Shown here in pieces: positions 37,495 to 38,035 of a stretch of DNA of 64,000 nt. A model generated the notes under the pieces. The model worked only from the letters and a program-made list of their open reading frames with translations. It did no database searches and had not been told where the DNA came from. This DNA comes from Strigamia acuminata (taxonomy: Eukaryota). The stretch lies in assembly GCA_949358305.1 (NCBI GenBank), contig OX442314.1, forward strand, positions 22,382,001-22,446,000. Direction: 5' to 3'. How positions within the stretch are numbered: the stretch's first letter is position 1; every line of letters begins with the position of its first letter. A program made the translations under genes and the position numbers.

Positions 37495-38035
37495 TCATTT
37501 ATCACACTTGCAGGTAGGCCATTTTGCCTTTTCCAATGCAGCAAATGAAACTAGTGTTGCCTAAAAAAATTGAAATAAATAAATCATATTTTCAAACAAA
37601 TTATAATCTTACCTTATTATATTTCTCATCATGCTGCTTTATGTTTCTGGGGTAAATTTTCCGAATAAATTTTGTCAGAGCTGGGGGATACTGGACACCT
37701 CCTTTCACTGGAATTAGCCTTTGGTTCTGTAAAAGTAGTATAAAAAATGTAATGTAACAAAATATAATAATATTTATTGAGTCATTATTAAATTACCTTC
37801 AGAATGAAAAAGATTTCTCTATATATTTTAGAGCGCATTTTTTCATCCCCATCGGTTTTGTTTGGTCGGTGCATAACAAGGTGAATCAACCCTTGTGGCA
37901 ATGAATAGCTACAACAAAAAGCATTATTAATGTTTTTATTCTATGCTAGAAATATATTATATGATAAAAAATAGGAATCCCTTACCTATTTGTTTCAAAT
38001 TCAGCCTTTAATTCGGCTACTGCAGCGCAATCCAT
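37495..38035 (-). CDS. Predicted 4-exon, 113-aa accessory gene inside the piggyBac element, convergent with the transposase
   Basis: Exons 38035-37986, 37908-37797, 37726-37613 and 37560-37495. GT-AG introns of 77, 70 and 52 nt. Phases 2/0/0 join without stops. Start context GAAGATGG. AATAAA on the minus strand at 37473-37478. Confidence 0.75.

Follow-up and report, generated by a model that had tools for sequence, protein, structure and literature searches.

Within the 64,000-nucleotide window of Strigamia acuminata DNA analyzed here, positions 35274-38243 hold a complete piggyBac element of 2,970 bp that is flanked by TTAA, ends in CACTAG, and encodes an intact transposase of 624 amino acids. 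The 3' tail of this element, defined as the 782 bp between the transposase stop codon and the right end, likely carries a real second gene that converges on the transposase gene. Its predicted splicing joins four minus-strand exons across three GT-AG introns into a reading frame of 342 nt (113 codons plus a stop codon). Judged from the sequence, it is highly probable that this frame is genuinely of gene origin, whereas its descent from KolX, the small second gene of Kol0-lineage Kolobok transposons, is about an even call. The features of the element and of its second gene are as follows.

35270..35273, no strand: left TTAA target-site duplication (sequence)
35274..35286, plus strand: left terminal inverted repeat, 13 bp, starting with CACTAG (19-nt perfect arms counting TTAA)
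35288..35308, no strand: left subterminal palindromic repeat (repeat families, direct and inverted)
35453..35487, no strand: inner left repeat, 91% complementary to 38183-38217 (inverted repeat pair)
35587..37461, plus strand: intact piggyBac transposase, 624 aa (PF13843, E 9e-71)
37473..37478, minus strand: AATAAA, predicted polyadenylation signal of the second gene (sequence)
37495..37560, minus strand: second gene exon 4, 66 nt, ending in TGA (predicted parse)
37561..37612, minus strand: intron 3, 52 nt, AT 0.87, containing a plus-strand AATAAA (predicted parse)
37574..37579, plus strand: AATAAA, the first after the transposase stop (sequence)
37613..37726, minus strand: second gene exon 3, 114 nt, P68-x7-R76-x2-Y79-P80 on a predicted helix (parse and model)
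37727..37796, minus strand: intron 2, 70 nt, AT 0.84 (predicted parse)
37797..37908, minus strand: second gene exon 2, 112 nt, R42-x3-Y46 on a predicted helix (parse and model)
37909..37985, minus strand: intron 1, 77 nt, AT 0.78 (predicted parse)
37986..38035, minus strand: second gene exon 1, 50 nt, ATG at 38035 (predicted parse)
38072..38076, minus strand: initiator-like TCATT (sequence)
38089..38132, no strand: 22-nt tandem duplication in the presumed promoter region of the second gene (repeat list)
38182..38217, no strand: right subterminal repeat (repeat families, direct and inverted)
38231..38243, minus strand: right terminal inverted repeat (repeat pair)
38244..38247, no strand: right TTAA target-site duplication (sequence)

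The exon coordinates, intron lengths, donor sites, and 113-codon product proposed in a first-pass annotation of this DNA were all reproduced exactly, as were the gene's own AATAAA (37473-37478) and the 33 nt that separate its stop codon from the convergent stop codon of the transposase. The donors of introns 1 to 3 read GTAAGG, GTAATT, and GTAAGA, each preceded by AG, and the acceptors are T-rich and end in YAG. The AT content of the introns is 0.78-0.87 compared to 0.59-0.62 for the exons, and these steps in composition coincide with the splice sites. Four host introns from the adjoining FN3 receptor gene, taken from loose-rule parses, are 58-96 nt long with an AT content of 0.75-0.82. Because their size and composition are alike, the three introns of the second gene look host-like. 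The predicted product is a basic protein of 13 kDa with a pI of 9.6. By codon position, G accounts for 0.26/0.14/0.20 in the second gene and 0.27/0.20/0.18 in the transposase, and the pattern of a G-rich first and G-poor second position is shared by the second gene, the transposase, and a host gene.

The TCATT at 38072-38076, which we take to resemble an initiator motif, may have a promoter role. With a start there, the first ATG would be the one at 38035, the five upstream ATGs all being located at 38147-38191. If the plus-strand AATAAA at 37574-37579 is used, the 3' ends of both transcripts would overlap across exon 4.

Three frame-compatible junctions had been called improbable by chance, and counts of spurious parses bear this out. 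The parser accepted frames that run from ATG to stop with introns of 45-110 nt, and the target was a parse that reached 342 nt or more and contained three or more introns; its strict and medium splice rules were drawn up after the splice sites had been seen. Under the medium rule, such a parse was given by none of 1,000 dinucleotide shuffles, by none of 2,000 shuffles made within exon and intron segments (which keep the composition mosaic), and by a single one of 634 overlapping tiles cut from the actual window sequence, that one being the second-gene locus itself. A second acceptor rule again passed 1 of the 634 tiles. The stretches behind related transposases gave no parse in 62 strand-stretches under the medium rule, even with a 300-nt cutoff. 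When the introns and splice sites were held fixed and the exon interiors shuffled, the frame stayed open in 29 of 5,000 trials. The loose rule passed 16 of the 634 real tiles (many of them over real coding sequence), 2 of 1,000 segment shuffles, and 1 of the 62 strand-stretches from relatives. Taken together, the start codon, canonical splice sites, open frame, and poly(A) signal exceed what is expected by chance.

The element itself has the hallmarks of piggyBac. Its boundaries read TTAA followed by CACTAG at 35274 and CTAGTG followed by TTAA at 38243, so that a TTAA duplication encloses short terminal inverted repeats that start with C (CACTA being one of four listed motifs). Multiple insertions are evident from the many different flanks beyond 35270 and 38247. 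The transposase combines a DDD catalytic site (D321, D400, and D501, placed by motif) with a C-terminal cysteine-rich domain (C588-C623) that has eight cysteines within residues 588-623. Kolobok elements are defined by 5'-RR and YY-3' termini and a Kolobok-type DDD/E transposase, according to the accessible text of PMC9587614; the ends here are CA..TG and the transposase belongs to PF13843. Palindromic subterminal repeats are present at both element ends, and the left one (35288-35308) is likely a transposase-binding site. No nested element with its own TTAA ends was seen around the second gene, either by eye or in the repeat list. The N-terminus of the transposase has an acidic Ser/Asp repeat and then a long Arg-Gly repeat tract (35671-35950), and in three related loci (L003, L007, and L032) the acidic N-terminus lies apart from the transposase core, apparently separated by an intron.

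Depth and variants were taken from two sequencing runs of one study, in which the flanks are covered as by DNA. The introns are uninterrupted in both runs, which behave as DNA, and this has no bearing on expression. The element ends reach 115-160 times the flank depth when contig depths are summed, which is a rough guide only. On the same rough guide, the depths relative to the flanks suggest three to four near-identical copies, about eight to nine internal copies in total, and more than 100 short derivatives that consist of ends only. Very abundant short non-autonomous derivatives without both genes match 35234-35584 and 38159-38275, with joints such as 35403 to 38232.

The KolX connection rests on a motif resemblance. 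The first-pass annotation had connected KolX with the ballast domain of P2X7, and this relation is in print: KolX resembles the ballast and has been proposed as the source of the receptor's domain (Kojima and Bao 2022, PMC9587614, accessible text). According to the accessible text of Rump et al. 2020 (PMC7016195), the conserved ballast positions are R546, A549, Y550, Y/F553, W559, I/V568, P570, C572, R578, F/Y581, and P582, and of the residues of the GDP site, R546 and R578 alone are retained outside deuterostomes. The second-gene protein matches 6 of these 11 positions (R42, Y46, P68, R76, Y79, and P80), including the equivalents of both R546 and R578, and fails at A549, Y/F553, W559, I/V568, and C572. 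The motif spacing given in the first-pass annotation is supported, with a loop two residues longer than in the ballast (Y-to-P spacing of 22 rather than 20). A score of 6 was reached by 144 of 20,000 shuffles and by 5 of 541 transposase fragments (P ~0.007-0.009), but because the motif was picked by eye, a P value of 0.01 overstates the support. The pattern P-x6-[IVL]-R-x2-[FYW]-P occurs once, in exon 3, among 711,260 six-frame residues. Single-sequence models of the exons place both arginines in predicted helices with pTM values of 0.33-0.38.

The only cysteines of the second-gene protein are C3, C109, and C111, none of them in the matching region, so that the seven zinc-binding cysteines of the KolX/ballast domain (PF20478) are absent. 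Because this cysteine feature was tested and not found, the second gene is not assignable to the KolX family. Searches by sequence, profile, and fold, all made with single exons, likewise returned no ballast match. Pfam scans of exons 2, 3, and 4 singly found no PF20478 and only one unrelated match below threshold, although the short queries make this a weak test. PF20478 also gave zero matches in three genomes, where the controls were equally blank. A word-based protein search with exons 2 and 3 revealed no homologue (a weak test with queries of 38-40 aa), an Atlas search with single exons returned nothing at 0.9 (again a weak test with short queries), and sequence searches of the PDB with these short single-exon queries gave zero and one irrelevant match. 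Foldseek with the very short exon 3 model gave no match at E 0.001, and P2X7 was absent among its six rows. Motif scans of viral contigs for ballast sequences recovered 0, 5, and 6 stretches, none of them ballast-like. The YxGF stretch that lies downstream in one published piggyBac KolX is absent from the second-gene protein. A full HMMER search with exon 3 yielded five matches that were all tandem-repeat ORFs and were dropped. On this sequence evidence the link between the second gene and the KolX/P2X7 ballast is plausible but unproven. By analogy, the layout may work like the Kol0-type two-gene arrangement.

Contigs from diverged copies carry 33 variants over 37470-38070, of which 22 are exonic and 11 lie in intron 1. 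Three diverged contigs have four exonic frameshifts (37528, 37821, 37838, and 37853), and disrupted frames are also seen in diverged copies of the transposase. At the GT and AG dinucleotides of the splice sites, none of the 33 listed variants occurs. Over all exonic variants there is no excess of synonymous changes (8 of 22, 6.4 expected, P 0.29), and only 2 of 11 singletons are synonymous. Of the 11 variants shared by two or more contigs, 6 are synonymous (3.3 expected, P 0.076), and of the 7 shared by three or more, a threshold that was set afterwards, 5 are synonymous (1.9 expected, P 0.018). For comparison, 10 of the 18 best-supported transposase variants among those listed are synonymous (4.3 expected, P 0.003). 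Because exon 3, which holds the main motif, is covered by the identical contig only, it yields no selection data; two contigs stop at its borders (37607 and 37742). One diverged copy keeps the donor side of intron 3 and differs in the interior, with its loose end at 37579 and the G of the GT beyond the letters shown. The synonymous lean of the shared variants is a weak hint of selection on the second gene, and the overall pattern hints, without proving it, that active lineages kept the frame while dead copies decayed.

Searches with the transposase returned 937 homologues, the best with 50-57% identity. An alignment of 32 homologues was used to fetch relatives, and 80 of at least 401 confirmed metagenome stretches were kept. 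Genome contigs contributed three further related loci, and viral contigs none. CACTAG ends are common to the fetched relatives. The suggestion that a second gene characterizes the wider CACT-ended lineage is not supported, since the 80 related CACT-type loci among the matches listed include no homologue and their tails are mostly shorter. Tblastn of the spliced product against 83 loci (80 from metagenomes and 3 from genome contigs) gave no significant match, the best E value being 0.21. One match in L010 (E 2.3) was dropped because it overlaps the subterminal repeats of that element. Gene parsing of the relatives' tails and leaders likewise gave no similar protein. A right end was recognized at 128-595 nt in 30 of the 51 loci that reach the transposase end, many of these rows being redundant, and a wider end pattern adds L010 with a tail of 640 nt. 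The median tail of the relatives is only about one third as long as the 782-nt tail here. A quick tree places the transposase, without a close neighbor, in a group of 48 rows that has support (SH-aLRT 96), and its closest relative in the tree set has 58% identity. The absence of the second gene from the 80 related loci among the matches listed marks it as lineage-restricted. It is apparently dispensable for CACT-type elements, and a gain in one lineage is the simplest reading, with the qualification that the sampled relatives are not close.

Four other explanations for the tail were weighed. A chance array of motifs that look like splice sites, in an untranslated tail rich in AT, would fit the 16 real tiles that pass loose rules and the failure to find a homologue, but it is very improbable given the empty shuffle series, the single tile passed under each of two stricter rules, the composition steps that fall on splice sites, and the unusual length of the tail. 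It is also improbable, if slightly less so, that the selected product is a spliced and polyadenylated antisense RNA whose pairing with the 3' end of the transposase mRNA would lead to small-RNA silencing, the protein being incidental. The two poly(A) signals (37473-37478 on the minus strand and 37574-37579 on the plus strand) would indeed overlap the 3' ends across exon 4, and bidirectional transcripts within an element are a recognized source of dsRNA (PMC3878927, accessible text). Nevertheless, such an RNA needs neither 113 open codons, which few exon shuffles preserve (29 of 5,000), nor codon-position bias and a synonymous excess.

The remaining two explanations accept the gene structure. 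A neutral passenger, in which a recent capture (KolX-like or not) stays open through the youth of the subfamily and is unselected, receives some weight from the lack of a synonymous excess over all variants, the frameshifts in three diverged contigs, the absence of the gene in 80 relatives among the matches listed, and the want of any diverged copy over exon 3, where two contigs end (37607 and 37742). This is nonetheless rather unlikely because the variants common to several contigs tend to be synonymous (5 of 7 and 6 of 11), splice dinucleotides are free of variants, nothing is missing from the gene between its ATG and its poly(A) signal, the tail accommodates it with a margin of 33 nt, and one diverged copy keeps the intron 3 donor side while its interior differs (37579, with the G of GT beyond the letters shown). 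A more serious contender, though still unlikely, is a real spliced gene unrelated to KolX that resembles the ballast by chance; it could be a gene captured from the host or the accessory gene of a different mobile element. The gene-structure evidence is entirely independent of the motif, the ballast link was confirmed by no search, the zinc cysteines are lacking, and 5 of 11 positions fail. Against this stand the motif P value of about 0.01 for a family already known on piggyBacs (PMC9587614, accessible text) and the lack of a host-like homologue of exon 2 or 3, for which the searches were weak with queries of 38-40 aa.

The reading we propose, at even confidence as a whole, is that the element carries a spliced second gene derived from KolX/ballast for a basic 13-kDa modulator of transposition. 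One piggyBac lineage would have acquired this gene, most likely from a co-resident TTAA-targeting Kolobok, with the cysteine-free C-terminal half of a KolX/ballast protein as its source. Transcription would run inward from the element's right end. The transcript would be spliced in the manner of host genes, its introns being short and rich in AT, and its polyadenylation would fall just before the transposase stop codon is reached. The protein would keep the two arginine-bearing ballast helices without zinc and may act as a dispensable modulator whose basic surface binds nucleic acid or the transposase-end complex. Overlap between the 3' ends of the two transcripts could provide a second, RNA-level route for damping. 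The more specific account, that an animal piggyBac took KolX from a Kolobok, lost the zinc cluster, and keeps the gene as a spliced convergent transposase regulator, is somewhat doubtful and is offered tentatively.

The general expectation that piggyBacs encode only a transposase agrees with an animal survey of single-ORF elements (PMC10813416, accessible text) but does not hold everywhere, as a protein that resembles the KolX C-terminus but lacks most of the cysteines is encoded by a small number of piggyBac families, of which the accessible text of PMC9587614 lists two (piggyBac-2_GrCh and piggyBac-14_PI). One of this pair shares the R-x3-Y and P-x7-R-x2-aromatic-P spacing with the second gene, a likeness judged by eye and not by alignment. 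The case described here differs from both in its animal host, to which the neighboring Ig/FN3 receptor and vasculin-like genes point, in a matching region that is free of cysteines, and in a loop that is two residues longer. From their name codes, we presume that the hosts of these two families are a red alga and an oomycete, and thus not animals.

Other known systems share parts of this arrangement. As in the Kol0 lineage described in the accessible literature, a small second gene accompanies a TTAA-targeting DNA transposon, with 6 of 11 positions matched and two arginines on predicted helices. Unlike Kol0-lineage Kolobok elements (RR..YY ends), nanor, and the P2X7 ballast, however, the present case combines a piggyBac-type transposase and C..G ends with a protein that lacks the zinc-cluster cysteines. 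CACTA-ended animal piggyBacs (Bouallegue 2017, PMC5381638; Guo 2023, PMC10813416; accessible text of each) have the same TTAA sites, CACTA termini, subterminal repeats, DDD residues, and cysteine-rich tail, but those elements are described as single-ORF (PMC10813416) and related tails measure 128-595 nt in 30 of 51 loci compared to 782 nt here. Pokey of Daphnia, also of the piggyBac superfamily, has extended regions outside the transposase, sequence captured from its host, and a short intron that is spliced, but this intron lies in the transposase gene, and the accessible text describes one ORF with non-coding flanks and no second gene (PMC3849761). The accessible parts of PMC6431247 and PMC12869080 hold nothing relevant to a two-gene animal piggyBac. 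The literature searched, which excludes Repbase Reports and subscription journals, contained no description of an animal piggyBac with a second, spliced gene on the antisense strand. A piggyBac with a KolX-like second protein is known already; what seems to be new is its occurrence in an animal and a convergent layout with three introns.

If the KolX reading is true, the element would be the first animal piggyBac with two genes, and KolX would have moved between transposon superfamilies more than once. The function of KolX and the ballast would then be directly testable in the established piggyBac transposition assay, because excision and integration assays are routine for piggyBac. Any protein that tunes a piggyBac transposase would be useful for gene-transfer tools. 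Even without the KolX link, a compact cut-and-paste element would have gained an intron-bearing second gene, one that ORF-based annotation would miss because its longest exon spans 38 codons.

Several observations concern the relatives on their own account. The minus strands of two 3' tails (L003 4247-4360 and L004 2990-3060) have paired antisense GTAAG donors followed by T-rich CAG or TAG, with no open frame. Across 47 relatives' tails, GTAAG occurs 16 times antisense and 4 times sense, a difference that includes redundant rows and that strand composition may explain. At L011 1980-2700, a CACTAG-type piggyBac whose end reads CGCTAG is inserted in transposase sequence that we take, from its motifs, to be mariner-like. 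Finally, three piggyBac-like transposases with 33-34% identity (L081-L083) lie on contigs of three bacterial metagenome-assembled genomes and are either eukaryotic contamination or true bacterial relatives.

The host neighborhood of the element includes two similar minus-strand genes for cytokine-receptor-like proteins with Ig and FN3 domains (~16200-32900 and 51300-56800), which are presumably domeless-like. The piggyBac sits about 2.4 kb upstream of the first of these (~16200-32900). A vasculin-like gene also neighbors the element within the window, and an intronless host gene at 49194-50051 encodes a 285-aa DUF3429 protein, which we take to be TMEM69-like, with high third-position GC.
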